64,000 nucleotides of DNA from a virus. The DNA lies in the UHGV virus genome UHGV-1421865; one strand, 5' to 3'. A model generated the notes under the pieces. That model was given only the letters and a program-made list of their open reading frames with translations. It searched no databases and was not told the origin of the DNA. Shown in pieces: positions 29,194 through 62,840 of this stretch (positions are counted from its first letter, which is position 1; every line of letters starts with the position of its first letter). A program made the position numbers and the translations under genes.

Positions 29194-29239
29194 AACCTAC
29201 TTGATTGTTTACTGTTACTATTTGGTACCCGAAGTGGGG

Positions 29240-29468: not shown

Positions 29469-29540
29469 TATTCAGGCTGGGACTTGAACCCAGATTGGAT
29501 GTGTATAAGACATCTAGCCTAACCTTTAACTGACCTGAAC
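29469..29540 (-). tRNA. tRNA-Ile (anticodon UAU, reads AUA)
   Basis: Acceptor GTTCAGG/CCTGAAT; anticodon arm GATGT-CTTATAC-ACATC; T-arm CTGGG-TTCAAGT-CCCAG. Confidence 0.55.
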
Positions 29541-29716
29541 GTGCAACCTACTTTAGAGTAGGTCTTGATTGCGTTACATACTTGATGTGTTACATATCTA
29601 AAATAGTACACTTTATGAGAAAAATCAATGTAGGCTCTAAAAATTTATTGCCATATTGTTTTGTTGTAACTCACATTCATAATAATAGTCTATATTAGTA
29701 GCAAAATCAATACAGT

Positions 29717-30684: not shown

Positions 30685-31041
30685 TCACTTGAATTTTGGT
30701 TTATATGCATCATCTATATGACAATTATCGAACATAAAACGATGGTATTTTACATTGCTGACGTCCCACTTAGACAAGTCACAGCTGAATTCTTTACAAC
30801 CAGAAAACATTTTGTCCATGTTCGTAACGTTAGAGACGTCCCATTCGTCGATTTTGATGTTTCTAATACCAACCCAAACAAATAAAAACGACATGTCTGT
30901 AATCAACGACGTATCAATGAAATTGAGATCAGCATCTGGACCTTGTCGCTTAATTTCTTCCATTATAATAGAAGTAAGTTCATCTTTTGATGTAGGCGTC
31001 AATGTTGCCGATTTTGTATTTGATGTGATATGTATTGCCAT
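30685..31041 (-). CDS. DUF285-type repeat protein family member (118 aa)
   Basis: Family N-terminal module MAIHITSNTKS...ELTSIIMEEIKRQGPDADLNFIDTSLITDMSFLF, then IDEWDVSNVTNMDKMF and CDLSKWDVSNV repeats. Confidence 0.7.
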   Translation of the reverse strand: MAIHITSNTKSATLTPTSKDELTSIIMEEIKRQGPDADLNFIDTSLITDMSFLFVWVGIRNIKIDEWDVSNVTNMDKMFSGCKEFSCDLSKWDVSNVKYHRFMFDNCHIDDAYKPKFK

Positions 31042-31059
31042 TACTATTTAATCTAAATA

Positions 31060-31560
31060 TCATCTATATCCAAATAACTGTCTCATAATCCTATTTAATT
31101 CATCAACACGGTCAGACGACATTGCGTCATTGTTAAATTTTGGTTTATATGACTCCATTATAGGACAGTTATAGAACATACCAGACATATCTGTCACATT
31201 AGAAACGTCCCACTTAGACAAGTCACGGTTGAATTTGATACAACAATCAAACATGTTTTCCATGTTAGTCACATTAGAGACGTCCCACTTAGACAAGTCA
31301 CAGTTGAATTTTAGACAACCACAAAACAGGTGGCGCATATTTGTCACATTAGAGACTTCCCACTGGTCTACTTTAATGTTACCAATGGTAATCATACCAA
31401 ACAACATAGACATGTCTGTTATAAGCGACGTATCGATATGATTCAAATCGGCATCCGGACCTTGCCGCTTAATTTCTTCCCAGATAATGTCTCTGAGTTC
31501 GTATTTTGTTGTTGGTTTTATTGTTAATGATCTCGCATTTGATGTAATGTGAATCGGCAT
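31060..31560 (-). CDS. DUF285-type repeat protein family member (166 aa)
   Basis: MPIHITSNARS...KRQGPDADLNHIDTSLITDMSMLF, then three WDVSNVTNM..MF repeats. Confidence 0.7.
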   Translation of the reverse strand: MPIHITSNARSLTIKPTTKYELRDIIWEEIKRQGPDADLNHIDTSLITDMSMLFGMITIGNIKVDQWEVSNVTNMRHLFCGCLKFNCDLSKWDVSNVTNMENMFDCCIKFNRDLSKWDVSNVTDMSGMFYNCPIMESYKPKFNNDAMSSDRVDELNRIMRQLFGYR

Positions 31561-31576
31561 AGTAAAACTGTGTTAA

Positions 31577-31933
31577 TCAATAAAATTTTGGTTGCAGTTC
31601 CGGTGTCATATTAGGACAATCCTCAAAAATACCATCATATCGTTCTACATTGCTAACATCCCAACCAGACAAGTCACACTTGAAATTTTGATTTGTAAAC
31701 ATGGCGATCATATTCGTGACATTGGATACGTTCCATTCGTCTATCTTAATGTTTCCAATCTCAATCCACCAAAACAACATAGACATATCTGTAATAAGCG
31801 ATGTATCGATAAAGTTCAAATCAGCATCGGGACCTTGACGTTCCAATTCTTGTTCTATAATAGACCTCAGTTGTTTTTTCGATGTTGGTTTCAGTCTTAA
31901 TAATTTGCTGTTAGATGTGATGTGAATTGGCAT
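31577..31933 (-). CDS. DUF285-type repeat protein family member (118 aa)
   Basis: MPIHITSNSKL...ERQGPDADLNFIDTSLITDMSMLF...WNVSNVTNMIAMF...WDVSNV. Confidence 0.7.
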   Translation of the reverse strand: MPIHITSNSKLLRLKPTSKKQLRSIIEQELERQGPDADLNFIDTSLITDMSMLFWWIEIGNIKIDEWNVSNVTNMIAMFTNQNFKCDLSGWDVSNVERYDGIFEDCPNMTPELQPKFY

Positions 31934-31935
31934 GG

Positions 31936-32392
31936 CTACATAAATTTAGGTTTTAGATCATCTGTCATCTTGTCACAAAACGTGAACATACCTGCTGCAT
32001 AAATCAAACTATTATTAGACCAACGAGACAGGTCACAATTGAGATTAGAACAACCATAGAACATCTCTGACATAGTGAACCTCGTGAACTTCGGTAAATT
32101 GTACATTGGATGTATTCCAAAGAGACAAATCACAGTTAAAATACTTACAATCGTAGAACATGCCGTGCATATCAGTGACATTACTGACATCCCATCCATC
32201 GATTTCAATGTACCTTATATTTTTCCTATAAAATAAGCATTCCATATTATCTATTTCAGATACATCAATGAAATTCAAATCAGCATCCGGACCTTGACGT
32301 TCCAGTTCTTGTTCTATGATAGTCTTGAGTTCATCTTTTGTCGATGGTTTAACTATACATGATTTTGTTGTAGATGTGATGTGAATTGCCAT
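31936..32392 (-). pseudogene. Frameshifted DUF285 family member (the track splits it into 32045..32392 and 31936..32208)
   Basis: The N-terminal part MAIHITSTTKS...WNTSNV and the C-terminal part MSEMFYGCSNLNCDLSRW... are in different frames. The junction carries a ~22-nt insertion with the 9-bp tandem duplication GAAGTTCAC-GAGGTTCAC. Confidence 0.6.
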
Positions 32393-32413: not shown

Positions 32414-32722
32414 TCATTTCTCAAAAACACATTCAATACCGTATGCATCTGCAGCCTGGTGTTCAATCACACAACCACGTGCTTTCTCCCAACCTTTACA
32501 AAAGTAAACAAGGTCGGCCTGTGCCATCAATTTCAACGACTCTCCCAAGTACAACAATCCTTTGTTCGGTACGTTAGAATTTTCAAAGTCATTACCAAAG
32601 TAGGATTCCAGTACAGTCCAACCTATAGACTCATACCGTTCTTTGACACGATTGCGCACCGCACTGATTTCGATATTAGAAAGACCGTTCATCGGTTGAC
32701 TGATAAATACTTTCTTTTTCAT
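32414..32722 (-). CDS. Small protein, possibly DUF4406 / nucleoside 2-deoxyribosyltransferase-like (102 aa)
   Basis: MKKKVFISQPMNG...GESLKLMAQADLVYFCKGWEKARGCVIEHQAA resembles DUF4406-type phage proteins. Tentative call. Confidence 0.4.
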   Translation of the reverse strand: MKKKVFISQPMNGLSNIEISAVRNRVKERYESIGWTVLESYFGNDFENSNVPNKGLLYLGESLKLMAQADLVYFCKGWEKARGCVIEHQAADAYGIECVFEK

Positions 32723-34239
32723 TTGTTATTTTTTAATTTAATTAGACTATCGATATACGTAAGTAGTTCAGAATCAATACGTTGACCTGTATACTTAAAC
32801 TCGTCGCGTTGCTTTTTCATACGACGCTGCATTTTCTTGAACGTATATTCTTTGTCATTTTTGTACACATTCCCGTTCACCGTAACGAAATAATTCGGAT
32901 CTTTTCTGAACTTTTCTAGTTCCTCTTCGTCGAACTTTTCGCCATTTTCGTCGATTACAATGTTGTCGAACGACAGATTACAAGTTTGGATCTGTGACGG
33001 GTAAAGTGACGCGAAGTCATAACACACGTTCCATGTGTAGTGTCCGGAGATGCACTCACAGAAAGCACCTTTGTACGGTTTCTTTTCTCGAACGGTATGA
33101 TCCCAGTTGTATACAATTACTTTATTGTTATCGTAAAACTCATAGAACATGTTCGCATTGGTAATGGCTACCTGTCCGAAAGCATCTTTCAACGTAATCA
33201 TTGTACTGGTCGACATAGAACATGGTACTTCCAGTGACTTCAGTTTTCTATGAATCAGCTGTACCAACAAACTGTCGACAGCATTATAGAAATAATACCA
33301 TTCTACATCACGCTCGTAGAGTTGTTGCAACGAACCGTCGTACTTGATCTTATGTGCGTCGACTGCCCTGGACGATACATAATCCAACGAAAACGACTCG
33401 TACGGTACCAAAATTCTGTCGTACTGTTTACAGATTTCCATATAATCCAACACAACACTATGTTGAGGCGCCGGCAGGCTGTACGACGTACCGTCGAGTT
33501 CTTTCCATGCAATCTTAGTGACTTCCCTTGTCGGTGACGCATTATAGATCATGTTCTTGGCTGTAGTAGCACCGAACAGTCGCTTAATGCGTGTCGTAAG
33601 ATACATCCAGTCGAAACGATATGAATTCCACCCTGCAAGTACCGGTGTATTCGGAACTACCTTATTAAAGAATTCCTCTAACAATTCCTCTTCTGAAGAA
33701 AATGCTTTATAATATACTTTAATATAATCTTCTACTTTCTGTCCCGACTGTTCTACAATCGACATTGCAAATTTGTTGTCGCGGATCCATGAAATATATC
33801 GTTCTTTCAGTAAGTTGATAGACTCCTGCGATAGTCGATGTAGACCGTATACGATACAACTCAAATTATGTCCTACTACAGAGATAGCGGTCACTCGTTG
33901 GTCTGCGACTTCGGGGTCAGGGAACTCGTCCGATACCTCTGTTTCAATATCGAATGTATATAGATTAGGATAATTGTTCTCAAACAACGGAGCGAACTCC
34001 TCCTTGTTATTATAAATGTATTCTAATATATCAAACGTATTAGGGTTGTACTCAGATGTCTTCTTATTTACACGTTTTGCCCTTTGTCCGTCCCAGGTAT
34101 CGTACTCCCCGTCCGGGTCATATTCGTACGACGGCATATAACTAAGGTACTTAGTGATAAAGTCGCGTTTACCTTCTTTTGTAATATATGAAATACTGAG
34201 TTTTTTGTCTCGCTTATTCCAGGTTCTATCTAAGATCAT
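32719..34239 (-). CDS. Family B DNA polymerase, N-terminal half only (T4 gp43-like: N-terminal and 3'-5' exonuclease domains through polymerase motif A), 506 aa; polymerase motifs B and C absent
   Basis: Exo I YTFDIETEVSDEFPDPEVADQRVTAIS (compare T4 gp43 FDIEV..FPEP...IDAIT), Exo II WNSYRFDWMY, Exo III YNAVD and polymerase motif A CYDFASLYPSQI. The ORF stops ~85 aa after motif A. No KxxxNSxYG or YGDTDS is found downstream on this strand. Confidence 0.8.
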   Translation of the reverse strand: MILDRTWNKRDKKLSISYITKEGKRDFITKYLSYMPSYEYDPDGEYDTWDGQRAKRVNKKTSEYNPNTFDILEYIYNNKEEFAPLFENNYPNLYTFDIETEVSDEFPDPEVADQRVTAISVVGHNLSCIVYGLHRLSQESINLLKERYISWIRDNKFAMSIVEQSGQKVEDYIKVYYKAFSSEEELLEEFFNKVVPNTPVLAGWNSYRFDWMYLTTRIKRLFGATTAKNMIYNASPTREVTKIAWKELDGTSYSLPAPQHSVVLDYMEICKQYDRILVPYESFSLDYVSSRAVDAHKIKYDGSLQQLYERDVEWYYFYNAVDSLLVQLIHRKLKSLEVPCSMSTSTMITLKDAFGQVAITNANMFYEFYDNNKVIVYNWDHTVREKKPYKGAFCECISGHYTWNVCYDFASLYPSQIQTCNLSFDNIVIDENGEKFDEEELEKFRKDPNYFVTVNGNVYKNDKEYTFKKMQRRMKKQRDEFKYTGQRIDSELLTYIDSLIKLKNNK

Positions 34240-34316: not shown

Positions 34317-34883
34317 TTAATGCCTAGTACGAATCTCAAATTGAGGATAGTATTCCTCTGGCATCTTATAACAAGCTGCAAACATTAGAAGCGCTTCAAC
34401 CTTATTGGATATATACCAACCAGACAAATCACAATTAAAGTTTTCACACATATAGAACATATTAGACGTGTCTGTCACATTCGATACATCCCAACTGGAC
34501 AAATCGCAATTAAACTTCCAACAATTACTGAACATGCCGCTCATGTTTCTAACATTAGAGACGTCCCATTCGTCTATTTTGATATTTCGGATGTCAAGTG
34601 AATTAAATAAATTAGACATGTCCGTGATCTTCGATGTGTCGATGAAATTGAGATCTGCATCTAGACCTTGATGATACAGTTCTTGTTCTATCAACGAACG
34701 TAACTCATCTTTCGTCGCAGGTCTCACTACAAGCGATTTCGTCTGAGATGTGATGTGTATTGACATGCTGATCAAATTTAGGATAATATTCAGGTAGCAT
34801 CTTAGTATACTTGTCAAACATGAATTTGTTGTGCTGAACGTTCGATGTGTTCCAACCAGACAAGTCTGATTTGAATTTTTCAC
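34317..34883 (-). CDS. DUF285-type repeat protein family member (likely start at ATG 34766, MSIHITSQTKS)
   Basis: The family N-terminal module begins at residue 40 of the track ORF. Repeats IDEWDVSNVRNMSGMF, CDLSSWDVSNVTDTSNMF and CDLSGW. It overlaps the 3' end of 34705..35409 by 62 nt. Confidence 0.65.
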   Translation of the reverse strand: MKNSNQTCLVGTHRTFSTTNSCLTSILRCYLNIILNLISMSIHITSQTKSLVVRPATKDELRSLIEQELYHQGLDADLNFIDTSKITDMSNLFNSLDIRNIKIDEWDVSNVRNMSGMFSNCWKFNCDLSSWDVSNVTDTSNMFYMCENFNCDLSGWYISNKVEALLMFAACYKMPEEYYPQFEIRTRH

Positions 34884-35409
34884 AACAGTAGAACATCGCA
34901 GACATATCCCTCACATTGGACACATTCCAATAGGACAGGTTACCGTTGAATTTTCTACAATTAAAGAACATGCACCACATACTACGTACATTAGAAACGT
35001 CCCAATAGATCAGGTCGGAATTGAAGATGCCACAATTGTAAAACATGTGTGACATGTTGGTGACATTGGACACATTCCAACTAGACAAGTCGCTGTTGAA
35101 AAATAAACACCAATCAAACATGTGTGACATATCCGTCACTTTCGATACATCCCATTTAGACAGATTACAATCTAAACAGGTACAATGACAGAACATCCAA
35201 GACATGTTTGTCACGTTGCTGACATCCCACTCGTCGATTTTGATGCTTCTGGGATTGAGTAACCAAAATAAATTAGACATGTCTGTAATCAGCGATGTGT
35301 CGATATGGTTCAAGTCAGCATCCCAACCTTGACGTTCCAGTTCTTGTTTTATGACAGAACGTAACTCGGCTTTTGTAGTTGGTCTCACTGTTTTAGTACT
35401 ACCATTCAT
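34705..35409 (-). CDS. DUF285-type repeat protein family member (234 aa, 6-7 repeats)
   Basis: MNGSTKTVRPTTKAELRSVIKQELERQGWDADLNHIDTSLITDMSNLF, then WDVSNVTNMSWMF, WDVSKVTDMSHMF, WNVSNVTNMSHMF, WDVSNVRSMWCMF, WNVSNVRDMSAMF and WNTSNV. Confidence 0.7.
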   Translation of the reverse strand: MNGSTKTVRPTTKAELRSVIKQELERQGWDADLNHIDTSLITDMSNLFWLLNPRSIKIDEWDVSNVTNMSWMFCHCTCLDCNLSKWDVSKVTDMSHMFDWCLFFNSDLSSWNVSNVTNMSHMFYNCGIFNSDLIYWDVSNVRSMWCMFFNCRKFNGNLSYWNVSNVRDMSAMFYCCEKFKSDLSGWNTSNVQHNKFMFDKYTKMLPEYYPKFDQHVNTHHISDEIACSETCDER

Positions 35410-35417: not shown

Positions 35418-35696
35418 TTAAATAAAAGATGAAAGCTGTGGGTTAAGCTTAGTAAACAATTTTTGATATTCTTGTATATTCTTTTTCCATAATCCTACAG
35501 GTGTATTGTCAAGCCCACGTTCTATTATACCTTTTAATGTTTTCCACTCCTCAACAGTTAATGTTACAGTTTGCTCCGAACTTCTGTTTTCACTTCGTGG
35601 TCCACTACTTGGAGAGGAGAGGTCTTGTAGATCACATCCTGACGTCCTTTGTTCGTTAGAAGTAGGTCTTAAAATCTGCTTATTTGATACGGGCAT
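35418..35696 (-). CDS. Hypothetical protein, 92 aa
   Basis: Ser/Pro-rich N-terminus. No motif. Confidence 0.4.
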   Translation of the reverse strand: MPVSNKQILRPTSNEQRTSGCDLQDLSSPSSGPRSENRSSEQTVTLTVEEWKTLKGIIERGLDNTPVGLWKKNIQEYQKLFTKLNPQLSSFI

Positions 35697-36171
35697 AGTT
35701 TACAAATGTATAAGGTTGTTCGTTGTGCTCGTCGGCTGGATGTGACTCTCTGAATGTACACTCCCAATCATTGTAGTCGACTTTCGGGAAAAAAGTATCG
35801 GCTTCCAGTGCTACCCCTTCAATGTGTGTCAAACATAGTCTGTCTGCCAGGGGCAATGCCGCTTTGTAGATAGACGCGCCACCGATAATGAATACTCGGT
35901 CGTCATCGTACGCTCCTACTAATGCAGTCTCTAAAGAATGAAACAGATGAGTACCGGGCGGTGCTTCACGGAGCGAACGACTAACCACAAAATTACGACG
36001 ATTAGGAAGAGCACCGTTCGGTAGCGACTCGAAAGTCTTCCGTCCCATAATTACAGTGTGTCCCGAAGTGAGTGTTTTGAAACGTTGTAGATCGCCTCGC
36101 AAATGAAAAAGCATGTGACCTTCGAAGCCGATAGCTCTGTTCTCATCGAGAGCGCAAATTATTGTGATCAT
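35680..36171 (-). CDS. frd: Dihydrofolate reductase
   Basis: MITIICALDENRAIGFEGHMLFHLRGDLQRFKTLTSGHTVIMGRKTFESLP...FIIGGASIY matches the DHFR signature. The track ORF has a 13-codon upstream extension, so the start is taken at the ATG at 36171. Confidence 0.9.
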   Translation of the reverse strand: MITIICALDENRAIGFEGHMLFHLRGDLQRFKTLTSGHTVIMGRKTFESLPNGALPNRRNFVVSRSLREAPPGTHLFHSLETALVGAYDDDRVFIIGGASIYKAALPLADRLCLTHIEGVALEADTFFPKVDYNDWECTFRESHPADEHNEQPYTFVNYARIK

Positions 36172-36209
36172 ATTATATAAATTGAATCCACGATGTCGAT
36201 TTATTGACA

Positions 36210-36719
36210 TTATTTTTCAAAAACAATATACGCTATTATAGGAATGACTATGGCGCCTATAAATAATAAAACTAAAGTAGCCAGAACCCAATAAAACTCA
36301 TCTTTACTATCATTGCCTGAATTATGATCTAAGTCAACAAAGTCGGTATACCAACGAGGTAGTTTAACAATGGCATTACAATCACGGAACATGTTTGTCA
36401 TTATCGCAACATTGTTAGTGTCCCAATTGTCTAAACCGGCACCCGTAAACCTATCACAACCGTTGAACATGGATTCCATCGTCTGCACATTGCTAACATT
36501 CCAACTGTCGATTTTGATGTCACGTACATCAAGGCAACAGAACAACCAAGACATGTCGGTGATCTCTGATACGTCAATATGATTCAAATCAGCATCCGGA
36601 CCTTGACGTCGTAGTTCCTGACGTATTAGTTCCTTCAATTCATCTCGTGAAGTAGGCCGCCCGTATGCTGGTTCTGGAACATATAAAGGTCTAGTTTTTG
36701 ACGTGATGTGTAGCGCCAT
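36210..36719 (-). CDS. DUF285-type family member with a C-terminal transmembrane anchor (169 aa)
   Basis: MALHITSKTRPL...RRQGPDADLNHIDVSEITDMSWLF...WNVSNVQTMESMF, then a C-terminal hydrophobic helix WVLATLVLLFIGAIVIPIIAYIVF. Confidence 0.65.
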   Translation of the reverse strand: MALHITSKTRPLYVPEPAYGRPTSRDELKELIRQELRRQGPDADLNHIDVSEITDMSWLFCCLDVRDIKIDSWNVSNVQTMESMFNGCDRFTGAGLDNWDTNNVAIMTNMFRDCNAIVKLPRWYTDFVDLDHNSGNDSKDEFYWVLATLVLLFIGAIVIPIIAYIVFEK

Positions 36720-47627: not shown

Positions 47628-48893
47628 ATGGATATTATTGAAATGTTTGCGGGTGTTGGTGGTTTTAGAGTTGGCTTTGAACGTGTGAATGAAAATCATA
47701 AAGAAGAGCCGAAGTTCTTTAACACAATATGGAGTAATCAATTTGAACCTTCAACAAAAATACAACACGCTTCACGTACATACCAACGAGTTTTTGGCCA
47801 AGACGGTCATTTTAATCAAGATATTGCAACAGTGAAAAGTGATGATATTCCTATTCACGATATGTTGGTCGGTGGTTTTCCTTGTCAGGATTATAGTGTT
47901 GCACGTGTGCTTAGTCAAGCATCGGGTATTGAAGGAAAGAGTGGTGTATTATGGTGGCAAATTGTTAGAATTATTAAAGATAAAGGAGACAAAGGTCCAA
48001 AGATTTTGTTTTTGGAGAATGTAGACAGACTACTAAGTTCTCCTGCCAAACAACGAGGCCGTGATTTTGCCATTATTTTAGAATCATTGAATGATTTAGG
48101 TTATATTGTCGAATGGAGAATAATTAATGCAGCTGAATATGGTATGCCTCAACGAAGAAAACGTACCTACATTCTTGCATACAAGAAAGGAACAACAATT
48201 GCAAAAAAAATAAAAGAACCAACAGAATGGCTGTTTAATGATGGAGTATTTGCAAAAGCCTTTCCTGTTAGTGATTACTGTGAAGAAACACCAATTGTTG
48301 GTATTCCTTTGAAAAGTAACCCTAATTGGGACTTGGTCGATTTATCACAAGAATTCAATAATGGTGGAAAGAAAACGCCATTTCTAAATGCAGGGTTGAT
48401 GATTGATGGTGTCTTTTACACATACAAGACAAACCCATCATATAATGGAAAATTCACATTCTTAGGGGACATTCTTGTAAGTGGTAAAGATAGAGAATTA
48501 ATTACAGAGGATTTTTATATTTCAGAAAATGAGTTACCCAAGTGGAAATACTTAAAAGGTTCAAAACGTGAAATTCGTAAAACGAAAGATGGTAATGAAT
48601 TTACTTACACAGAGGGAGCAATGGTTTTTCCTGACCCACTTGATAAGGCATCAAGAACTATTATAACATCTGAAGGTGGTAAGACACCATCTCGTTTCAA
48701 ACACGTCATTAAAGACCCAATAAACGGAAGATATAGAAGACTTGTTCCATTAGAACTTGAACGATTAGATATGTTTCCTGACAATCACACAGAAGGAGAA
48801 AACGACGTAAAACGAGCATTCTTTATGGGCAATGCGCTTGTTTGTGGTGTAATCACAAAAGTTGGTGAAGAAATACGGAAAAGATTGATATGA
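47628..48893 (+). CDS. dcm: DNA cytosine-5 methyltransferase
   Basis: Motif I EMFAGVGGFRVGF, motif IV GGFPCQDYS, motif VI FLENV, motif VIII QRRKRTYIL. Confidence 0.95.
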   Translation: MDIIEMFAGVGGFRVGFERVNENHKEEPKFFNTIWSNQFEPSTKIQHASRTYQRVFGQDGHFNQDIATVKSDDIPIHDMLVGGFPCQDYSVARVLSQASGIEGKSGVLWWQIVRIIKDKGDKGPKILFLENVDRLLSSPAKQRGRDFAIILESLNDLGYIVEWRIINAAEYGMPQRRKRTYILAYKKGTTIAKKIKEPTEWLFNDGVFAKAFPVSDYCEETPIVGIPLKSNPNWDLVDLSQEFNNGGKKTPFLNAGLMIDGVFYTYKTNPSYNGKFTFLGDILVSGKDRELITEDFYISENELPKWKYLKGSKREIRKTKDGNEFTYTEGAMVFPDPLDKASRTIITSEGGKTPSRFKHVIKDPINGRYRRLVPLELERLDMFPDNHTEGENDVKRAFFMGNALVCGVITKVGEEIRKRLI

Positions 48894-49082: not shown

Positions 49083-49781
49083 ATGTCAAATTTAGGAACA
49101 GCACATATCCTTGTCGGTGAACTGGCAAAGGATTATAGTAAACTTTCTACAGAAGAAAAAAATAAACTAGCACGTACCTTGTTCGGCATTTCCGATAAGG
49201 CGTCGTCTGAGTCTACACCAAAACCTACACTACCTACTAGTGATCTATCGTCTATCACAGAAATAACATCCGGCGATGCCGTTGCAACTGTTAAACCTGT
49301 AGCAGTTACTGAACCTACAGTTGTAGTAGGAGAAACAAAAGAGATTACCATATCGGCTGTGAAAGTATCTACTTTTTATAGCGATAAAGCGATGAAACTC
49401 CCCGAAGGGATTGTCGCAAACGCCGTAGAGGTCAATAAAGAGAACGGTACAGTCAAACTTAAAGACATCGGTCGTGTAGTACCTGCAAATACCGGTGTTA
49501 TCCTCACAGGAGAGTCCGGAACCTATACACTAACGTCGACTACAGAAGCTGCAAAGGAATTCGGTAAAAACGACCTTAAAGGTTCATTGACAGACATTCC
49601 TGCAAGTGAAGTATCCACATCGTCTGATGTTTATTATGCGCTGGCTGTTAATAAAGGAACTCCTTGTTTCGGTATTGTAGAAACCGATATTCCGGCAGGC
49701 AAAGCTTACTTCACTGTTCCTAAGTCTGATTCGACGGATAGTCGATTCCCCAATGGTTTTACTATTTCAAATCAAGACTAA
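49083..49781 (+). CDS. Hypothetical protein, 232 aa (T/S/V-rich)
   Basis: ORF followed by a strong bidirectional terminator. Confidence 0.45.
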   Translation: MSNLGTAHILVGELAKDYSKLSTEEKNKLARTLFGISDKASSESTPKPTLPTSDLSSITEITSGDAVATVKPVAVTEPTVVVGETKEITISAVKVSTFYSDKAMKLPEGIVANAVEVNKENGTVKLKDIGRVVPANTGVILTGESGTYTLTSTTEAAKEFGKNDLKGSLTDIPASEVSTSSDVYYALAVNKGTPCFGIVETDIPAGKAYFTVPKSDSTDSRFPNGFTISNQD

Positions 49782-49802
49782 CTTTGTACACAGAAAAAAA
49801 AT

Positions 49803-49842
49803 AACAGTCGAGCAACTCATTATGAATTGTTCGACTGTTATT
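49803..49842. terminator. Bidirectional rho-independent-type hairpin
   Basis: aaaaaaaataacagtcgagcaactcattatgaattgttcgactgttattatg. Confidence 0.6.
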
Positions 49843-49845
49843 ATG

Positions 49846-50958
49846 TTAATACAGTTCTATACGTAGACCTAACTTATTGGCTTTTAACATCTTAGATGAT
49901 GTAGAGTTTATATCACCCGTGAAGAGTACTTTCGCGTCTGACCAACTGTTTGTTTGAACGTACTGTGGATTCTTCTCCAGAAATTCTTTCTTAGACGCAT
50001 ATTTAGACGGACTACCCGTCAACATCACAGGCACTTGTGTAGTCTTGCTTGTACCGACGTGTAAGTTTGTAAGTTGACACATACCAATGCCGTAGTCAGT
50101 AAGTGCGTTAACCAACGCATTGAATTGCAACCATTTAGGTGATTGGTGATTATAGACCCAACTGTACCCTTCCGATGCGACACCACTGAAATCGGCTTGT
50201 CCAGTACCGATGAACTGCGCACATTTCTTAGCGCATGTGGAACCACATTTGTTGAAATTCAACGACTTGATGATGTCTACTAATGTGATTTGTCGTCGGT
50301 AATTCTTAAACGATTCGGCGGCTTTCTGCCCTCGTTTACCTTTCAACGCTTGTTCTATCTGTTCCGGTCTTACTTGGAGTATATTTGTTAAACTCTCGAA
50401 GTTATGTTGTAAAGTGTCGTACAACGCAGCCGCTACAGACGGACCGATGTTAGGTATCTTCAGAGTTTGTGCAGACGCGATGAACTGCCCACGGTTACTC
50501 ACAAGACCCACCAGATGACAACCTTCTACAACAGCATCATTTGGTAAACTACCGAGGTCCTTTGATGGATTGTCAAGTACAGAATAAAGAAACGGAATAA
50601 TGTCACCGGCTAAGGAAACTTCAATCTCCGTACCTATACCTACTTGATTATCAATAAGATAGCCGTAGTTATGTCCAGAACATTTAGTGACTATTTTATC
50701 AAGTAGTACAACAGGTTCAAAGACAATCACCGGTGTATACTCTCCGGTCTTACCTTGGTTCCATACAATATCTACTACCTTCGTCTTTTGAATTTCCGGA
50801 ACAAATTTCACAGCAACGCAGTCCGACGGTCGAACTTTATCGGTATTCTGTTCTCTGACAGGGAGTATAGGCTTGATAACAAACCCGTCCAGAGCATATT
50901 CACACTCTTCGGTACGGTATTTGTTAAAGTCGTTATATAGTTCTTGTAAGGTACTCAT
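49846..50958 (-). CDS. ligA: NAD-dependent DNA ligase, C-terminal fragment (from 20 aa before nucleotidyltransferase motif IV, through the OB-fold and HhH region)
   Basis: ALDGFVIKP (motif IV DGVVIK), VAVKFVPE (motif V), OB-fold WNQGKTGEYTPVIVFEPVVL, HhH-like GIGPSVAAALY. Its start ATG overlaps the thyA-family stop in a TAATG arrangement. Confidence 0.85.
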   Translation of the reverse strand: MSTLQELYNDFNKYRTEECEYALDGFVIKPILPVREQNTDKVRPSDCVAVKFVPEIQKTKVVDIVWNQGKTGEYTPVIVFEPVVLLDKIVTKCSGHNYGYLIDNQVGIGTEIEVSLAGDIIPFLYSVLDNPSKDLGSLPNDAVVEGCHLVGLVSNRGQFIASAQTLKIPNIGPSVAAALYDTLQHNFESLTNILQVRPEQIEQALKGKRGQKAAESFKNYRRQITLVDIIKSLNFNKCGSTCAKKCAQFIGTGQADFSGVASEGYSWVYNHQSPKWLQFNALVNALTDYGIGMCQLTNLHVGTSKTTQVPVMLTGSPSKYASKKEFLEKNPQYVQTNSWSDAKVLFTGDINSTSSKMLKANKLGLRIELY

Positions 50959-51926
50959 TATACTGCGATAGGTGCTTTAATAACAGGGGGTGTATAAGAA
51001 CCGTCGAAATGTTTCTTTACCTTTATCTGTCGGCTTTCGTACATCTCCAAAATATAACACAAATAAGCGTCTAAGGACATCGGTACATTCACAGTAGACA
51101 TGGTCATATCCAAGGTGCATTCTACGGTATGATAACATTGCGTCACATAGTCATCGGTATTAGTAAAGAACGAATCGATATATTCCTGTACAGCATCTTT
51201 ATGATTGTCGTAGATATGGAAATTATCGGCGGTATAGTATATATTTCCGCATTTTACTTTATCGATACCATATTTCTTTTTGAACCATTCATGGTTGACC
51301 TTAAAATAGCCGTTTATAAACCAGTTGAACCAAGAACAGAATATGAAATTATACGGCGCACCCAAGAACGCGTCGTTACTGCGAATATGAGCATGTAGGT
51401 TGTGTGTAAGTACTGTATTCCCAGCGTCGTCTGTGTCCAACTGAAATGTAACGTTATATTCGAACATACAAGGTGCCAGTGCCATTTCCGGTAGGTCGTT
51501 CACATTCCAAAGTGAGATAATATGTCGGCGCGAGAATAAATTGTTATTGAAACCTTCAAATAGTTGTTTCAACTGATCAATACCGTTAAAGTTTCGAAAC
51601 TGATAACCGTACGCCTTACCGATAGTACCATCTTCCTGTACCCATTCATCCCAATAGGTAACACCGTGGTCGCGAAGCCACTGTACGTCGGTCCGTCCTT
51701 GCAGCATCCAGAGTAGTTCGGTGAGTGCCATTCGAGGATAAACACGTTTTCCGTTCACCACCATCAGTCGAACTTCGTCGGACGGTGAAGGAGACTGTTC
51801 AAATACAAAGTTGATACCGTAAGAGTTCAACGTACTGATGTCGGTTCTATTCGACATTTTCTGTGTGACAGTCGACAATATGTTAGTAAGCTGTCTTACA
51901 TAGTCTGTTTCAAATAGTTGTGTCAT
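50958..51926 (-). CDS. thyA: ThyA-family enzyme (thymidylate synthase or dUMP hydroxymethylase), 322 aa, nested between the two ligase fragments
   Basis: ELLWMLQGRTDVQWLRDHGVTYWDEWV; RRHIISLWNVNDLPEMALAPCMFEYNVTF (E. coli [29 protein letters not shown]); IRSNDAFLGAPYN (RSxD...N, the dUMP-type Asn); TADNFHIYDNH; C-terminal KAPIAV. The His next to the catalytic Cys is Met here. Confidence 0.85.
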   Translation of the reverse strand: MTQLFETDYVRQLTNILSTVTQKMSNRTDISTLNSYGINFVFEQSPSPSDEVRLMVVNGKRVYPRMALTELLWMLQGRTDVQWLRDHGVTYWDEWVQEDGTIGKAYGYQFRNFNGIDQLKQLFEGFNNNLFSRRHIISLWNVNDLPEMALAPCMFEYNVTFQLDTDDAGNTVLTHNLHAHIRSNDAFLGAPYNFIFCSWFNWFINGYFKVNHEWFKKKYGIDKVKCGNIYYTADNFHIYDNHKDAVQEYIDSFFTNTDDYVTQCYHTVECTLDMTMSTVNVPMSLDAYLCYILEMYESRQIKVKKHFDGSYTPPVIKAPIAV

Positions 51927-52602
51927 TGTTTAATGGATATTCTAGTTTATAAAATTTAGGTGTCTTGGGAAGTCCGTACCATTCTCGTTCTGTCCACTTA
52001 CCGTTTTCTAATACTCTATAATCGTATATGATAATGTCTAAATCATCGTCGTATTCGTGAGATGTACTATTCAAGACACCCGATACCATCGAACGAGGAC
52101 TCGAGAACTTATCTTTGTATTTCTCTTCAAATGTCTTCAGTTTTACCAGCACCTCACCACGTATAACTGCCTGTGCACCATATACATAGTAGTCTGGATA
52201 AACCGATCGAATTTGCTTAATAAGGTGGCTACGCAAGTCTTTACCGTAATTCCCGTCGCCCCGAGACGATATGCTGCCAACAGTACCGTTCGCATTGATA
52301 ACACATTCGAAAGAACAACCGTCGAATTTCGGGGTCACTTCTATGGCATTATCACCGACATATTTTTTAATATCTTCTGTATAATTAGAAAAATCATCTA
52401 AGCTATGAACTTGGACCTTGTAGAGGGATCCCATTATAAACGGATGCCGTACAGTATATGTTGTACTGGATTTAGTACCGATATAAGACTTGTTCTCGAG
52501 ACCTAGCTCTTTCTCTAACGCGTCAAATTCTGTGTCAGACATTATCTCCTGCCCATTGTAGTATGCTTCTTTTGCTTTATGGTATAATTCTTCTTTTGTC
52601 AT
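51910..52602 (-). CDS. ligA: NAD-dependent DNA ligase, N-terminal fragment (Ia domain plus adenylation motifs I-III), 230 aa
   Basis: KxDG adenylation motif TPKFDGCSFE; motif III VIRGEVLV. It ends in a TGA, 17 nt after the thyA-family start in another frame. Confidence 0.85.
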   Translation of the reverse strand: MTKEELYHKAKEAYYNGQEIMSDTEFDALEKELGLENKSYIGTKSSTTYTVRHPFIMGSLYKVQVHSLDDFSNYTEDIKKYVGDNAIEVTPKFDGCSFECVINANGTVGSISSRGDGNYGKDLRSHLIKQIRSVYPDYYVYGAQAVIRGEVLVKLKTFEEKYKDKFSSPRSMVSGVLNSTSHEYDDDLDIIIYDYRVLENGKWTEREWYGLPKTPKFYKLEYPLNNDTTI

Positions 52603-52682
52603 CTTATCATCATATAGTTTATACTTTATATAGTATAGTTTACAAGAAAAATCAGCTACTTAAAACATTGTTTTGGGTCTAC

Positions 52683-52835
52683 TTTGACAGTTTCTATTTC
52701 GTGTACCGACGTGTACAAATCTAGAATCGTCATAAAGGCACTTTAGAGCTCCTGTATCGCGTCGAAATTATCTAGCCTTACTACAACCAAGGTCAACTAA
52801 TTTGTACGCGATACAGGAGAGATTTTTATTGAGTT
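52683..52835 (-). repeat. Conserved structured intergenic element, copy H (reverse orientation)
   Basis: The reverse complement matches the family: ...aaaaatctctcctgtatcgcgtacaaattagttgaccttggttgtagtaaggctagataatttcgacgcgatacaggagctctaaagtgcctttatgacgattctagatttgtacacgtcggtacacgaaatagaaactg. Confidence 0.55.
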
Positions 52836-53171: not shown

Positions 53172-53810
53172 TCAGTCTTTGAATTTTGGTTGAAGTTGTG
53201 GATTAGTTCCCATATTAGGACATTTATCAAATGTCATATAATACTTGATTACTTTCGACACATCCCACTCAGACAAGTCACAATTGAAACGTTCGCAAAA
53301 ATAGAACATATAACTCATATTTTTAACATTGGTGACATTCCAAGAACTTAAATCTACATTTAGCTTTTTACACCAAGAGAACATATCTTCCATGTTTTCT
53401 ACTTTACTAACGTTCCAATTTTCTATACCTTTGCCTTCAAATTTTTTACATTCATAAAACATGAAAGACATGTTCGTTACATTAGAGGTGTTCCAATTTT
53501 CTACTCCATCGCCTCTGAAGTTATCTTGACCTACAAACATGTTTTGCATAGTAGTTACATTTGATGTATTCCACTGGTCAATTTTGATATTTCCGATGTT
53601 TAATTTATAAAACAAACTAACCATATCTGTAATCTCCGATGTATCTATAAAGTTCAAATCGGCGTTCGGACCTTGTTCTTTTAGTTCTTGTTCTATAATA
53701 GATCTGAGTTCGTCTTTTGTTTTAGGTCTCAATCTTAATGGTTGGGTATCGGGCGTAATCTTTAATCGTTCTGTGATTAAACTATCGTGAATGTATCGTG
53801 AAAGTGACAT
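53172..53810 (-). CDS. DUF285-type repeat protein family member (212 aa); 3' ~215 bp identical (inverted) to the 3' end of 58151..58696
   Basis: MSLSRYIHDSLITERLKITPD...EQGPNADLNFIDTSEITDM, then repeats. The C-terminal 70 aa are identical to the paralog 58151..58696. Confidence 0.7.
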   Translation of the reverse strand: MSLSRYIHDSLITERLKITPDTQPLRLRPKTKDELRSIIEQELKEQGPNADLNFIDTSEITDMVSLFYKLNIGNIKIDQWNTSNVTTMQNMFVGQDNFRGDGVENWNTSNVTNMSFMFYECKKFEGKGIENWNVSKVENMEDMFSWCKKLNVDLSSWNVTNVKNMSYMFYFCERFNCDLSEWDVSKVIKYYMTFDKCPNMGTNPQLQPKFKD

Positions 53811-59304: not shown

Positions 59305-60081
59305 ATGTCACTTTCAAAATACATCACAGAACGGTTAAAGATTACGTCGAATACAAAATCGGCCAATAACCAACATACATTGTTTCCTAAAGATTTAAAG
59401 GAGCTCCTACCGATATTAGAAGATGAAATTAAAAAACAAGGTCCAGATGCTGACTTGAATCACATTGACGTATCGCAAATTACAGAAATGCACGATTTAT
59501 TTTATAGAATTTACATTAGAAACATCAAAGTCGACAAATGGGACGTGTCGAATGTAGTGAATATGCGTAAAGCGTTTACTGGTCATAAAGACTTTAACGC
59601 TGACCTATCATCCTGGGATGTATCAAATGTAGAGAATATGCGTAGTATGTTTGAAGGATGCCCGAACTTCAATGCTGACCTGTCAGAATGGGATGTATCT
59701 AAGTGTAGAGATTTCTGTAACGTATTTAATGGATGTGAAAAATTCAACCATGATCTGTCTAATTGGGATGTTTCTAAGGCTTGGATTACAGCAGGTATGT
59801 TTCAGGATTGTAATAGTTTTGAATCAGATTTATCTTCTTGGAATGTATCTAATGTAAAGGACATGAATAGGATGTTCCAAAACTGTTGGAAATTCAATTC
59901 CGATCTGTCTGGTTGGAATGTATCAAAAGTTGAAACAGTATCACAAATGTTCGAGAATTGTACAAGATTTAGAAGTAATTTATCTAAATGGGATGTAAAT
60001 CGTGTAAAAACTTGGTATAAGTTCAGTGCTGAGTGTCCAAATTTTAATGATAAGAGTAATTTGCCTGAAAAACTTAGATAG
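59305..60081 (+). CDS. DUF285-type repeat protein family member (258 aa)
   Basis: MSLSKYITERLKITSNTKSA...KKQGPDADLNHIDVSQITEM, then seven repeats (WDVSNVVNMRKAF ... WNVSKVETVSQMF). Confidence 0.7.
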   Translation: MSLSKYITERLKITSNTKSANNQHTLFPKDLKELLPILEDEIKKQGPDADLNHIDVSQITEMHDLFYRIYIRNIKVDKWDVSNVVNMRKAFTGHKDFNADLSSWDVSNVENMRSMFEGCPNFNADLSEWDVSKCRDFCNVFNGCEKFNHDLSNWDVSKAWITAGMFQDCNSFESDLSSWNVSNVKDMNRMFQNCWKFNSDLSGWNVSKVETVSQMFENCTRFRSNLSKWDVNRVKTWYKFSAECPNFNDKSNLPEKLR

Positions 60082-60113
60082 ATTTAAACAATACTAACTA
60101 TATTTAATACACT

Positions 60114-60965
60114 ATGTCACTTTCAAAATACATCACAGAACGATTAAAAATTACGTCAAATAGCAAATCGGCTACTAGACTAAAACCTAAAACAAGATAT
60201 GAGCTTAGTTCGTTGATAGGGGAAGAATTAGAACGTCAAGGTCCCGATGCCGATTTGAACTTTATCGACACATCGGATATTACAGACATGTCTGAGTTGT
60301 TTTCTGGGTTTAACATAGAAAACATCAAAATAGACCAGTGGGACGTTTCTAATGTCGATAATATGTATCGTATGTTTAATTTATGTACTAGCTATAATGG
60401 TGACTTGAGCAATTGGGACGTTTCTAATGTTGAGAACATGTATGGTATGTTTAACGGTTGTATGTCATTTACCGGAGAAGGTATAGGAAATTGGAATGTC
60501 TTAAATGTTACTAATATGTCGACAATGTTTATGGGTTGTAAAGTATTGAATCCTGACCTATCTGGATGGGACGTTTCTAATGTCAATGACATGCGCGCTA
60601 TGTTCGATATGGCAAATTCTTTTGAAGGGAAAGGTTTAGATAAATGGCGTACCACCAAGCTTACTGATACAAAACAGATGTTTTATGGTTGTGATAATTT
60701 CAATTGTGACTTGTCTGACTGGGATGTGTCTAACGTAACAACCATGTTATCTATGTTTGAGTCTTGTTATAAATTTGATTCTAATTTGGGTAAGTGGGAC
60801 GTTAGCAATGTGACGGATATGAAATTTATGTTCAGAAACTGTTATAATTTCAAAGGCATCGGTTTGGAAATGTGGAATACTTCAAATGTAATTACAATGA
60901 ATTCAATGTTCGACGGTTGTAAGAAATTAAATGTCGATTTAAGTTCTTGGAATGTTTGTTTCTAA
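60114..60965 (+). CDS. DUF285-type repeat protein family member (283 aa), 3'-truncated relative to its paralogs
   Basis: MSLSKYITERLKITSNSKSATRLKP..., then eight repeats. It ends abruptly at ...KKLNVDLSSWNVCF-stop, where paralogs continue TNVKNMSYMF... Confidence 0.65.
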   Translation: MSLSKYITERLKITSNSKSATRLKPKTRYELSSLIGEELERQGPDADLNFIDTSDITDMSELFSGFNIENIKIDQWDVSNVDNMYRMFNLCTSYNGDLSNWDVSNVENMYGMFNGCMSFTGEGIGNWNVLNVTNMSTMFMGCKVLNPDLSGWDVSNVNDMRAMFDMANSFEGKGLDKWRTTKLTDTKQMFYGCDNFNCDLSDWDVSNVTTMLSMFESCYKFDSNLGKWDVSNVTDMKFMFRNCYNFKGIGLEMWNTSNVITMNSMFDGCKKLNVDLSSWNVCF

Positions 60966-61044
60966 AGTAGGACCTTATAATACATTTAAGCTAAAATCTG
61001 GCACCCACCCAAATTCAATATCTAAAAATAACACAGTTTCACTA

Positions 61045-61506
61045 ATGTCACTTTCACAATACATCACAGAACGACTAAAGATTACATCTAATAGTAAATC
61101 TGCAACAGTGACACCAAAGTCAAGAGACGAACTCAGATCTCTTATAGAAAAAGAATTAGAACACCAAGGCCCAGATGCTGATCTAAATTTCATTGATACA
61201 TCTGAGATTACCGATATGTCATACCTGTTCGAAGACTGTAATATCAGAAACATCAAAATAGACGAATGGGATGTCAGCAATGTAACTGATATGCGCGGCA
61301 TGTTTGTTTGGCGTAAAGATTTCAATTGTGACTTGTCTCGTTGGGACGTATCTAACGTCACAAACATGACTGATATGTTCAACACCTGTAAAGAATTTAA
61401 CTGTGACTTATCCGGTTGGGATGTATCTAATGTTGTTAAGCATTTTAGTGTATTTTTTAACTGTGATAAGATACAAGATAACATGACTCCTAAATTCAAT
61501 AAATAA
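61045..61506 (+). CDS. DUF285-type repeat protein family member (153 aa; the track ORF 60952.. has a spurious 5' extension)
   Basis: MSLSQYITERLKITSNSKSATVTPKSRDELRSLIEKELEHQGPDADLNFIDTSEITDM, then three repeats. Confidence 0.7.
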   Translation: MSLSQYITERLKITSNSKSATVTPKSRDELRSLIEKELEHQGPDADLNFIDTSEITDMSYLFEDCNIRNIKIDEWDVSNVTDMRGMFVWRKDFNCDLSRWDVSNVTNMTDMFNTCKEFNCDLSGWDVSNVVKHFSVFFNCDKIQDNMTPKFNK

Positions 61507-61523
61507 ATAAATAAATCAAAAAT

Positions 61524-62051
61524 ATGAGTTTACAAAAATACATCAAAGAAGCACTGTCGCCCGGTAGCTTTAATAACAAACCTACTACGACACAAGAACT
61601 CAGAGATCTTATAAAAGAGGTGTTTGATAAACAAGGACACAATGCCGACCTGAACTTCATCGATACGTCGTTGATTACTGATATGTCCGAACTATTCAGA
61701 GACCTTTATCCCCAAAACATCAAAATCGACAAATGGGATGTCTCTAATGTGACGAAGATGAACCACATGTTTGTCGATTGTATGTATCTTAAAACAGATA
61801 TTTCTGATTGGGACACCAGCAATGTTACAGATATGCAATATATGTTCTGTAATTGTAGTTACTTCAACGGTGACTTGTCCGGTTGGGACGTATCTAACGT
61901 TACTAACATGGATTTGATGTTCAAAGGTTGTGCGCGACTGGAATGCGACTTATCCTATTGGGATGTCGACAATGTAGAAACTCACTTCGACGCTTTTGAA
62001 GGTTGTGAAAAGATGACCGATGAAATGCTACCGAAATTTGAATTTTCATAA
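61524..62051 (+). CDS. DUF285-type repeat protein family member (175 aa; variant N-terminus)
   Basis: MSLQKYIKEALSPGSFNNKPTTTQELRDLIKEVFDKQGHNADLNFIDTSLITDM, then four repeats. Confidence 0.7.
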   Translation: MSLQKYIKEALSPGSFNNKPTTTQELRDLIKEVFDKQGHNADLNFIDTSLITDMSELFRDLYPQNIKIDKWDVSNVTKMNHMFVDCMYLKTDISDWDTSNVTDMQYMFCNCSYFNGDLSGWDVSNVTNMDLMFKGCARLECDLSYWDVDNVETHFDAFEGCEKMTDEMLPKFEFS

Positions 62052-62840
62052 ATGAAACTACAAAAATTCATCACAGAACGGTTAAAGATTACGTCTAAGT
62101 CAAGACCACTCAAACTAACAGAACGTACATTGTTTCCGACTAACTCCGGGCAACTTAAAGCTGTAATAAAACATGAATTGAAACATCAAGGTCCGGATGC
62201 CGATTTGAACCATATCGATACTTTTAAGATCACCGATATGTCTAAATTATTTGAATCTCTACAAATCGGAAACATCAAAATCAACGAATGGGACGTCAGT
62301 AATGTCACTAATATGAGGTTCATGTTTAGCGGGCGTACTAAATTCAATTGCGACTTGTCCGGTTGGGACGTCAGTAATGTAACAGATATGGGGTTCATGT
62401 TTAGTAGTTGTACGTTATTTGAGGGTGGTGGTTTAGATCATTGGGATACGTCCAACGTGGCAGATATGGAACAGATGTTTTACGGTTGTGAGAATTTCAA
62501 TTGTGACCTATCTAGTTGGTCTTCGCGTGTCTCTAATGTGACAAATATGAACGGTATGTTTTCTGGAGCTGATAAATTTGAAGGTAATGGTTTAGATCAT
62601 TGGGATACGTCCAACGTGACACGCATGCGTGCTATGTTTAAGGGTTGTAAGGTTTTTGAAAGCGACATATCCGGTTGGGATACGTCAAATGTTGAGGACA
62701 TGTCGTATATGTTTATGGACTGCGGTAAGTTCAAATCAAATCTATCAGGCTGGAACGTATCTAAATTAGGCGGTCCTCAGATTAATATATTCAAAAATTG
62801 TCCTAAGATGATACCTCCGTTGAGACCTCGATTTGAATAG
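62052..62840 (+). CDS. DUF285-type repeat protein family member (262 aa)
   Basis: MKLQKFITERLKITSKSRPLKL...KHQGPDADLNHIDTFKITDM, then seven repeats. Confidence 0.7.
   Translation: MKLQKFITERLKITSKSRPLKLTERTLFPTNSGQLKAVIKHELKHQGPDADLNHIDTFKITDMSKLFESLQIGNIKINEWDVSNVTNMRFMFSGRTKFNCDLSGWDVSNVTDMGFMFSSCTLFEGGGLDHWDTSNVADMEQMFYGCENFNCDLSSWSSRVSNVTNMNGMFSGADKFEGNGLDHWDTSNVTRMRAMFKGCKVFESDISGWDTSNVEDMSYMFMDCGKFKSNLSGWNVSKLGGPQINIFKNCPKMIPPLRPRFE

Follow-up and report, generated by a model that had tools for sequence, protein, structure and literature searches.

A thyA-Family Gene between the Two Halves of an NAD-Dependent DNA Ligase Gene in a Clade of Large Gut Phages

The virus genome UHGV-1421865 is considered here through a 64-kb stretch of its DNA, referred to as the window, in which a nicotinamide adenine dinucleotide (NAD)-dependent DNA ligase is encoded in two pieces, with a complete gene of the thymidylate synthase (thyA) family lying between them. 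The locus occupies positions 49846-52602 on the minus strand and consists, in order, of LigN (the N-terminal ligase fragment), the ThyA-family open reading frame (ORF), and LigC (the C-terminal fragment), as listed in Table 1. An initial annotation of this DNA had delimited the same three ORFs, with the same order and coordinates, and had described the overlap at each of the two junctions; both overlaps are seen in the sequence.

LigN holds the Ia (nicotinamide mononucleotide-binding) region, motif I (KFDG), motif III (IRGEV), and motif IIIa. The Ia region, residues 5-32 (EELYHKAKEAYYNGQEIMSDTEFDAL), aligns with the beginning of phrog_3869, TIGR00575, T5 LigA, and Protein Data Bank (PDB) entry 9HU3, and single residues within it are assigned after E. 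coli LigA. The conserved part of LigN stops at ...PKFYKL (residue 219), and the final 11 residues are a tail specific to the window. LigC starts 23 aa ahead of the DG of motif IV, not 20 aa as first reported, and contains, in order, a helix, motif IV (DGFVIK), motif V (AVKF), an oligonucleotide-binding (OB) fold, a helix-hairpin-helix (HhH) region, and a BRCT-like end. KFDG, motif III, and DGFVIK had all been recognized in the initial annotation, and the OB fold and HhH region that it assigned to LigC are backed by the PF03120 and phrog_3869 matches. The adenylation-domain motifs of a ligase (I, III/IIIa, IV, and V) are all present but divided between two ORFs, and scores against TIGR00575, an equivalog model for a single polypeptide, are 67.5 and 72.5 for the two ligase ORFs, compared with a cut-off of 444. 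The zinc-finger region (LigC residues ~130-165) has one Cys, as opposed to the four of bacterial LigA, and the split-ligase lineage appears to be without the four-Cys zinc finger. Sister phages carry a variable insertion of 14-44 residues in this region of LigC.

Table 1. Coordinates of the split-ligase locus, its flanking signals, and two folate-related genes in the window.
Feature	Position	Strand	Details
LigN	52602-51910	minus	230 aa; PF01653 E 5e-13; phrog_3869 positions 14-225; TIGR00575 positions 5-219
ThyA-family ORF	51926-50958	minus	322 aa; PF00303 E 1e-46; Cys153, Met154, Asn193, C-terminus IKAPIAV
LigC	50958-49846	minus	370 aa; PF03120 E 5e-15; phrog_3869 positions 254-643 of 656; TIGR00575 positions 253-379
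LigN/thyA overlap	51910-51926	minus	17 nt; LigN 3' end within thyA 5' end; LigN stop TGA at 51912-51910
thyA stop/LigC start	50956-50960	minus	overlapping as TAATG
Sigma-70-like promoter match upstream of LigN	52767-52796	minus	TTGACC-18-GATAAT; consensus match only, likely hosts use other promoter types
Terminator-like hairpin of preceding unit	52961-52924	minus	upstream of LigN
Intrinsic terminator after LigC	49793-49841	minus	long hairpin and eight-U run; -23 kcal/mol, z = -6.7, 0/200 shuffles as stable
Serine hydroxymethyltransferase (SHMT)	5403-6731		PF00464 E 2e-156
Dihydrofolate reductase (DHFR)	35680-36210		PF00186 E 2e-54

The break falls at roughly residues 250-262 of E. coli LigA, i.e., within the nucleotidyltransferase domain, between motifs IIIa and IV. 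Profile matching places it between positions 219 and 253 of TIGR00575, while residue 203 of LigN aligns to ~235 of E. coli LigA and residue 20 of LigC to 281. Alignment with 29 full-length relatives puts the break in a short loop of variable length and sequence, flanked by the conserved strand PKFYKL and by the helix LQELYNDFNKYR that precedes motif IV. An alignment-based AlphaFold model of LigN fused end to end with LigC has a mean predicted local distance difference test (pLDDT) score of 78.8; it was used in place of a single-sequence model of the fused ligase, which reached a pLDDT of 32 and was discarded. The sole low-confidence stretch near the junction of the fused model is the LigN tail (residues 224-230, pLDDT <50), which sits between a strand at 219-221 and a helix at 234-247, and the model matches E. 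coli LigA on nicked DNA (2OWO) with an E-value of 4e-27 over ~600 columns. Profile, alignment, and model thus bear out the earlier view that the ligase is cut between motifs III and IV by a complete, independently framed gene. It follows from the position of the break that the active site would be composite, with the adenylated lysine (in KFDG) and motif III supplied by LigN and motifs IV and V by LigC.

All of the locus (2757/2757 nt) is identical in an independent assembly, L024 (L0xx labels denote related metagenome loci), and the exact LigC protein occurs on 7 contigs. Besides the window and this identical copy, the loci examined comprise L003/L004/L005, L009, L010, L012, L014/L015, and L021, and they include the most diverged member, with a LigC identity of 72%. 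Every one of them has the order LigN (225-230 aa), ThyA (321-322 aa), and LigC (370-414 aa). Because these related loci come from several samples, the split arrangement is real and not an assembly error; sequencing error had been named at the outset as a possible refutation, and both the identical assembly and the diverged relatives speak against it.

A search of 5.8 billion proteins with LigC returned 19 clusters at 72-100% identity, which are 280-414 aa long, carry the OB-fold domain only, and lie on contigs of up to 228 kb. From there, identity falls to 44%, at which the proteins matched are complete ligases, 603-644 aa in length. The nearest ligases in isolated or named phages, at 38% identity, are those of the Prevotella Lak megaphages, each a single ORF of 702-711 aa, and overall the ligases nearest to the split clade from outside (38-49% identity) are single ORFs of 600-711 aa. 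Since the arrangement is constant within the clade while these outside ligases are intact, thyA would have entered the ligase gene once, after divergence from phages with an intact ligase and before the present clade diversified. Gene order in related phages, a comparison that the initial annotation had called for, is therefore in keeping with its suggestion of an origin by gene insertion. In GC content and codon usage, thyA is like the neighboring genes, as would be expected if the insertion is old. No match to the locus was obtained by megablast among 50,697 phage records, pattern scans of IMG/VR with ThyA or LigC as single proteins gave no confirmed relative, and a literature search for a ligase split by thyA found nothing. 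A 425-aa ligase-like protein (P0146) was considered as a second split type and set aside, given its 3.5-kb contig, 1.3x coverage, and uninformative upstream sequence.

The junctions between the three ORFs are tight in all lineages, although their exact form varies. The commonest forms in the relatives are ...TTA AAA TAATG... between LigN and thyA and ...TAA T ATG... between thyA and LigC, so that the insert measures 969 nt (966 nt of thyA plus 3 nt). L012 has ATGA at the LigN/thyA junction and is 3 nt shorter, and the thyA stop of L010 is TGA (TGA-T-ATG). In L003 (5970-6003), 33 extra nt lie between the thyA stop and the LigC start and resemble a duplicated junction (ATCACTGTAA repeated); this insertion also yields an alternative upstream ATG for LigC. 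Relative to L003 and L009, the window shows a 1-nt deletion and a T>C change at the LigN/thyA junction, producing its 17-nt overlap and, through the lost nucleotide, a new LigN tail; at the thyA/LigC junction, the loss of 2 nt produces TAATG. The distance from stop to start is 0-34 nt in all of these states, and the only strong terminator in the unit is the hairpin with its U-run after LigC. As the stops and starts stay this close and only LigC is terminated, the three ORFs would constitute one operon with coupled or re-initiating translation. The translational coupling proposed earlier therefore has the junctions it calls for, while co-translation itself is deduced from them. Promoter matches at the locus are no commoner than in shuffled sequence. 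The hosts are likely Bacteroidales, in view of the Lak relationship and the similarity of the phage DHFR to one from a bacterial operon (see below), and Bacteroidales are not known to use sigma-70 consensus promoters.

The account that best accommodates these findings, with a probability of about 0.72, is that of a "gene in pieces". An NAD-dependent ligase gene, carried by the common ancestor of a group of gut phages of ~200-230 kb, would have received an entire gene of the thyA family at a variable surface loop between the strand ...PKFYKL and the helix LQELYNDF... ahead of motif IV. LigN, thyA, and LigC would be transcribed together, with each internal stop codon abutting or overlapping the start that follows, up to the single strong terminator downstream of LigC. 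The two ligase halves would associate without a covalent link to give a working enzyme whose active site is composite. ThyA would be a thymidylate synthase of ordinary mechanism that, together with the phage DHFR and SHMT, forms a thymidylate cycle.

Several points weigh against this account. The proposed assembly of the halves draws on selection and on analogy with split enzymes. The LigN tail past FYKL differs between lineages (EYPLNNDTTI in the window vs. IKSLK), with no evident interaction tail. LigN and LigC also share one reading frame in all loci despite the indels at the junctions (-3 in L012, +33 in L003, and -1 and -2 in the window); the probability of this by chance is ~0.04, and a model of three independent ORFs has no need of it. 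As for ThyA, the protein scores below all NCBIfam equivalog cut-offs (the nearest being TIGR03284, at 100.3 vs. 108.35), and it has Met at position 147 (E. coli numbering), so that dTMP is a predicted product. Finally, sister phages have Asp at position 177 in the ThyA of the same locus.

The condition of the ligase halves is informative as to whether they still have a function. Pairwise ratios of nonsynonymous to synonymous divergence (dN/dS) among five lineages are 0.06-0.18 for LigN, 0.06-0.09 for ThyA, and 0.09-0.17 for LigC, and synonymous divergence (dS) reaches 1-2 or saturation in the deepest pairs. All three genes are under purifying selection, and the catalytic motifs on LigN and LigC are intact in all lineages. 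With so low a dN/dS over saturated synonymous divergence and with these motifs in place, the halves are not decaying remnants by the measures available from sequence. It is unlikely, though conceivable, that the fragments no longer make a ligase and either have separate jobs (NAD-binding or adenylyl transfer for LigN and DNA-binding for LigC) or are degenerating. A break within the catalytic domain is harsher than the between-domain cut of the T5 type and would fit such a loss, but the loss is hard to reconcile with constraint on both fragments, with the retention of motifs on either side of the break, and with the fact that LigN and LigC are always kept jointly and in order. Since the two halves, and the gene between them, have been held intact by selection, the ligase is most likely active as two separate chains.

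There is also an unlikely set of alternatives in which thyA is not a passive insert, either because LigN, ThyA, and LigC form an obligatory complex or because a little full-length ligase is made by recoding or splicing. In the first, which on its own is quite unlikely, the ThyA dimer would serve as a platform for LigN and LigC, or the nesting would couple the supply of deoxythymidine monophosphate (dTMP) to nick sealing in a stoichiometric manner; the initial annotation had hinted that the three products are made stoichiometrically. Were this so, thymidylate supply would be physically tied to nick sealing. The clade-wide conservation of the arrangement and its tight stop-start junctions would be accounted for, and some other aid to assembly is conceivable for a LigN that has no conserved interaction tail. 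Against it stands the occurrence of distant members of the same ThyA clade (41-43% identity) in unrelated contexts, namely L006, where the gene lies beside an AAA_28 gene and a helicase, and L008. The insertions and distinctive features of ThyA are shared with these members, and so nothing in the protein looks adapted to the ligase. Furthermore, the constant gene order is also expected from a ratchet, given that only a precise excision restores an intact ligase.

The PF00303 score of the inserted gene, 159.7, lies above the cut-off of 24.3, its scores with the NCBIfam equivalog models lie below theirs, and the best 60 of 119 PDB matches are all thymidylate synthases except for one designed protein on that scaffold. 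The protein was aligned with E. coli ThyA (checked against PDB 1AOB), the deoxycytidine monophosphate (dCMP) hydroxymethylase gp42 of phage T4 (100% vs. M37159), and the deoxyuridine monophosphate (dUMP) hydroxymethylase gp29 of phage SPO1. The catalytic Cys, the dUMP-specifying Asn, and the Met in place of His had all been read correctly beforehand, with Cys153, Asn193, and Met154 corresponding to Cys146, Asn177, and His147 of E. coli. Conserved residues, in E. coli numbering, are R21, E58, W80, W83, Y94, R126, R127, L143, and C146, in addition to R166, S167, D169, N177, H207, Y209, N211, and H212. The C-terminal extension of ~55 aa that had been described for this protein is absent: it ends in ...IKAPIAV, compared with ...IKAPVAI in E. 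coli, and its 58 extra residues are accounted for by three internal insertions common to ~50 phage proteins of 293-360 aa. Trp80, Trp83, and the C-terminal tail have a role in reductive methyl transfer, and the features tied to that reaction are kept in the window, which reads MALAPC, YWDEW, and ...IKAPIAV.

It had been proposed that the ThyA-family enzyme is instead a dUMP hydroxymethylase, in which case the DNA of the phage would contain 5-hydroxymethyluracil (5-hmU) or a derivative. The Met at position 147 and the scores under the NCBIfam thymidylate synthase cut-offs lend themselves to this idea, as does the finding that positions 147 and 177 are the most modification-associated of the family in viromes, where they separate cytosine-modified from unmodified contigs (PMC8670742). 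The proposal is nevertheless very unlikely. None of the 51 proteins of the long clade has His at position 147, where M, V, Q, F, or E is found instead, i.e., a residue other than His is the rule there. A bulky hydrophobic residue at position 143 excludes water, and hydroxymethylases carry Asp or Glu at this position (PMC13326640). Leu143 is present in the window and all 51 clade members, whereas SPO1 gp29 (...KDRPC) and T4 gp42 (...SDFMC) have Asp143. Trp80/Trp83, Asn211-His212, and the IKAPIAV tail, all kept here, are likewise missing from the two hydroxymethylases, which are without Trp83, Asn211-His212, and an IKAPxAx tail. Asn at position 169 marks 5-hydroxy-dCMP synthases (PMC13326640), and the window has Asp169. 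Lastly, no 5-hmU kinase or other hypermodification gene was seen among 23 window ORFs in a partial scan.

The folate-related genes of the window bear on the same question. SHMT and DHFR had been cited in favor of a hydroxymethylase, and Pfam confirms both. DHFR, however, points to a thymidylate synthase, because only the reductive reaction yields dihydrofolate; DHFR is required there and not for hydroxymethylation (PMC4528723). With Leu143, Asp169, Trp80/Trp83, and the tail kept, and with DHFR and SHMT encoded, the enzyme of the window is most readily understood as a genuine thymidylate synthase, predicted to convert dUMP to dTMP and belonging to a divergent phage clade, and the three enzymes together are predicted to complete a thymidylate cycle. 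The phage DHFR is ~72% identical to DHFRs encoded in bacterial thyA-folA operons (L022, where the operon lies by queA and acyl-CoA dehydrogenase genes), and its matches at ~60% identity include one NCBI record named Bacteroidaceae. These similarities suggest that it was captured fairly recently from a Bacteroidales host.

The residue at position 177 differs among phages that share the split-ligase locus. Asn, encoded by AAT (at 51348-51350 in the window), is found in the window, L003, L014, and L021, while L009, L010, and L012 have Asp, encoded by GAT; the two types of ThyA are 78% identical overall. Asp occupies this position in 36 of the 51 long-clade members, and the combination of Met147 with Asn177 occurs in only 3 of 122 sequences, the window counted, and is probably derived. 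According to work cited in PMC8670742, the Asn177Asp substitution makes the thymidylate synthase of E. coli or L. casei a dCMP methylase. Because the Asp-type enzymes combine Asp177 with a retained Leu143 and C-terminal tail, 5-methyl-dCMP is their predicted product. A natural switch of substrate between dUMP and dCMP, with dTMP or 5-methyl-dCMP as the respective product, is thus predicted among close phages. In the DHFR search, phage-type relatives were few and confined to 81-94% identity, followed by the bacterial thyA-folA operons at ~72%; it may be that only the Asn-type subclade has DHFR. As a single A/G change turns Asn177 into Asp, uncultured gut phages may differ in this way in the base chemistry of their DNA.

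Mobile introns, inteins, and recoding were also considered as explanations of the interrupted ligase. No Rfam family, including group I and group II introns, matches 49700-52800 at E<=1, and the whole window gives only tRNAs at the gathering threshold. Pfam and PHROGs find thymidylate synthase and no endonuclease domain in the insert, which thyA fills from end to end. An intron was dropped for lack of an Rfam match at the locus. A split intein was rejected, as there are only 6-11 residues past FYKL and none ahead of the conserved helix of LigC. Lak phages reassign TAG, and a stop-codon reassignment that fuses the ORFs was entertained for that reason. It was rejected, since the three stops are TGA, TAA, and TAA; readthrough of the LigN TGA meets a TAA nine sense codons on, and no suppressor tRNA is found among the 14 tRNAs called by ARAGORN in the tRNA region of the window.

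What remains is the highly improbable case in which a full-length ligase is still made, with thyA lying in a self-splicing intron or being bypassed at the level of RNA or translation. Such a mechanism would explain why LigN and LigC stay in one frame despite the indels, and the insert of exactly 969 nt in the commonest configuration would suit it. Quite apart from the absence of an intron match and of room for intein halves, the thyA ORF leaves no non-coding space for a ribozyme core, junction sequences vary among lineages, and a translational bypass of 950 nt is without known case. In L003 and L021, thyA and LigC agree at 13 of their first 18 nt (MNQLFE vs. MNKLQE). This likeness and the shared frame are probably both coincidental, although the likeness may be a vestige of the insertion event and the two together lend recoding or splicing a small probability. 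An artefact of sequencing or assembly, whether frameshifts in one ORF or a chimeric contig, is practically negligible, as thyA is a complete gene in a third frame and not a frameshifted piece of the ligase, and as the identical assembly and the diverged relatives from several samples already described carry the same order.

Split essential genes of phages are usually blamed on homing endonucleases, introns, and inteins. Here, the gene that does the splitting is an ordinary metabolic one. It cuts the ligase inside its catalytic fold, in an arrangement that purifying selection has maintained while the lineages diverged over a long time. It would seem from this that a covalent nucleotidyltransferase domain is able to function in the form of two chains, and the locus would offer a natural break point for engineered split NAD-dependent ligases.

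Further features were seen in other parts of the window. A family B DNA polymerase ORF at 32719-34239 (minus strand) encodes 506 aa, comprising the exonuclease domain and the first ~135 of 453 positions of PF00136. When a 916-aa relative was compared with the 64-kb window by tblastn, residues 19-443 alone were matched, and its C-terminal half was found nowhere in the window. In L020, a 507-aa polymerase product was called from a gene that runs off the end of the locus. The polymerase looks to be split as well, with its halves far apart. A tRNA array at 23500-29550 (minus strand) has 16 Rfam matches and 14 ARAGORN calls; tRNA-Met and tRNA-Lys each occur twice, and one call has an odd anticodon loop. 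A truncated IS605-family TnpB/OrfB ORF (27397-28251) interrupts this array, and a TnpB gene lies directly upstream of LigN in L003 and L004.

Many paralogous DUF285 (BspA-like repeat) genes, often in tandem, are found at 30685-32392, 34705-35409, 36210-36719, 53172-53810, and 59305-62840. They have a common N-terminal peptide (M.IHITSN.K...KP..K.EL..II..E...QGPDADLNFIDTS), occupy the space after the polymerase fragment, and flank DHFR. Two DNA methyltransferase genes are present. That for a cytosine-5 methyltransferase (47628-48893) differs from the replication genes in its third-position GC content (GC3), which is much lower at 0.23, and in its more deviant codon usage, and a recent acquisition is suggested; the other, at 4008-4922, is for an N6-adenine methyltransferase of the Dam type. 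The gene for a small radical-SAM/4Fe-4S protein at 4943-5443 (PF13353, E 2.5e-33) overlaps the 3' end of SHMT by 41 nt; the protein may activate an anaerobic ribonucleotide reductase or be an enzyme of the QueE kind.

Several known systems resemble the locus in part. Friedrich et al. are said to have described, in 2007, the nrdA gene of Aeromonas phage Aeh1 as split by the homing endonuclease gene mobE. Mechanistically, this is the closest case (Crona et al. 2011, PMC3045599). In both, an essential gene of DNA metabolism is cut within its catalytic domain by a complete gene, and the halves are retained as flanking ORFs; non-covalent assembly without splicing, shown for Aeh1, would be a further common trait. 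The insert differs, being thyA here and a homing endonuclease gene in Aeh1, with no mobility function visible in the former. The junction tails, which are essential interaction elements in Aeh1, are not conserved here. Thymidylate synthase genes are themselves subject to fragmentation in large phages, as in T4, where the td gene carries an intron. Similarly, TS1 of Bacillus phage Bobb is split by a GIY-YIG gene (PMC4528723). In those cases, thyA is the interrupted gene, whereas here it is the insert. "Fractured" genes, in which split inteins flank a free-standing endonuclease gene (Dassa et al. 2009, PMC2677866), likewise consist of a replication gene divided in two around another gene. In contrast, no intein halves occur here, where 6-11 extra residues are found at the end of LigN and none at the start of LigC.

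With respect to the ligase itself, the enzymes of Lak and metagenomic phages share 38-49% identity, the same domain order, and a zinc-finger region without the four Cys, but they are single ORFs of 600-711 aa in which a short variable loop occupies the position of the break. The T5 and PR1 phages, as here, have an NAD-dependent ligase made of two polypeptides from neighboring genes. In T5, ligA (323 aa) and ligB (259 aa) are ~200 nt apart, with promoters and no gene in the spacer, and the PDB holds a heterodimeric DNA ligase of PR1 phage on nicked DNA (9HU3 and 9I5I, according to the entry titles). The T5 parallel drawn at the outset thus holds insofar as two-subunit ligases do exist in such phages, but it is a loose analogy, as the cut site is different and no gene is inserted. 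The T5/PR1 type is cut after the OB fold, between domains, and not inside the nucleotidyltransferase domain. T5 LigA aligns to residues 4-178 of LigN and 35-122 of LigC, chain A of 9HU3 also aligns to both, T5 LigB aligns weakly to residues 166-367 of LigC (the HhH/BRCT part), and phrog_3359 matches LigN and LigC alike. Since T5 LigA and chain A of 9HU3 span the break seen here, the two splits are, judging from these alignments, independent events. The split by thyA is real, old, selected, and unlike that of T5, and it would be a second way, independent of the T5/PR1 type, by which a phage NAD ligase has come to consist of two pieces.

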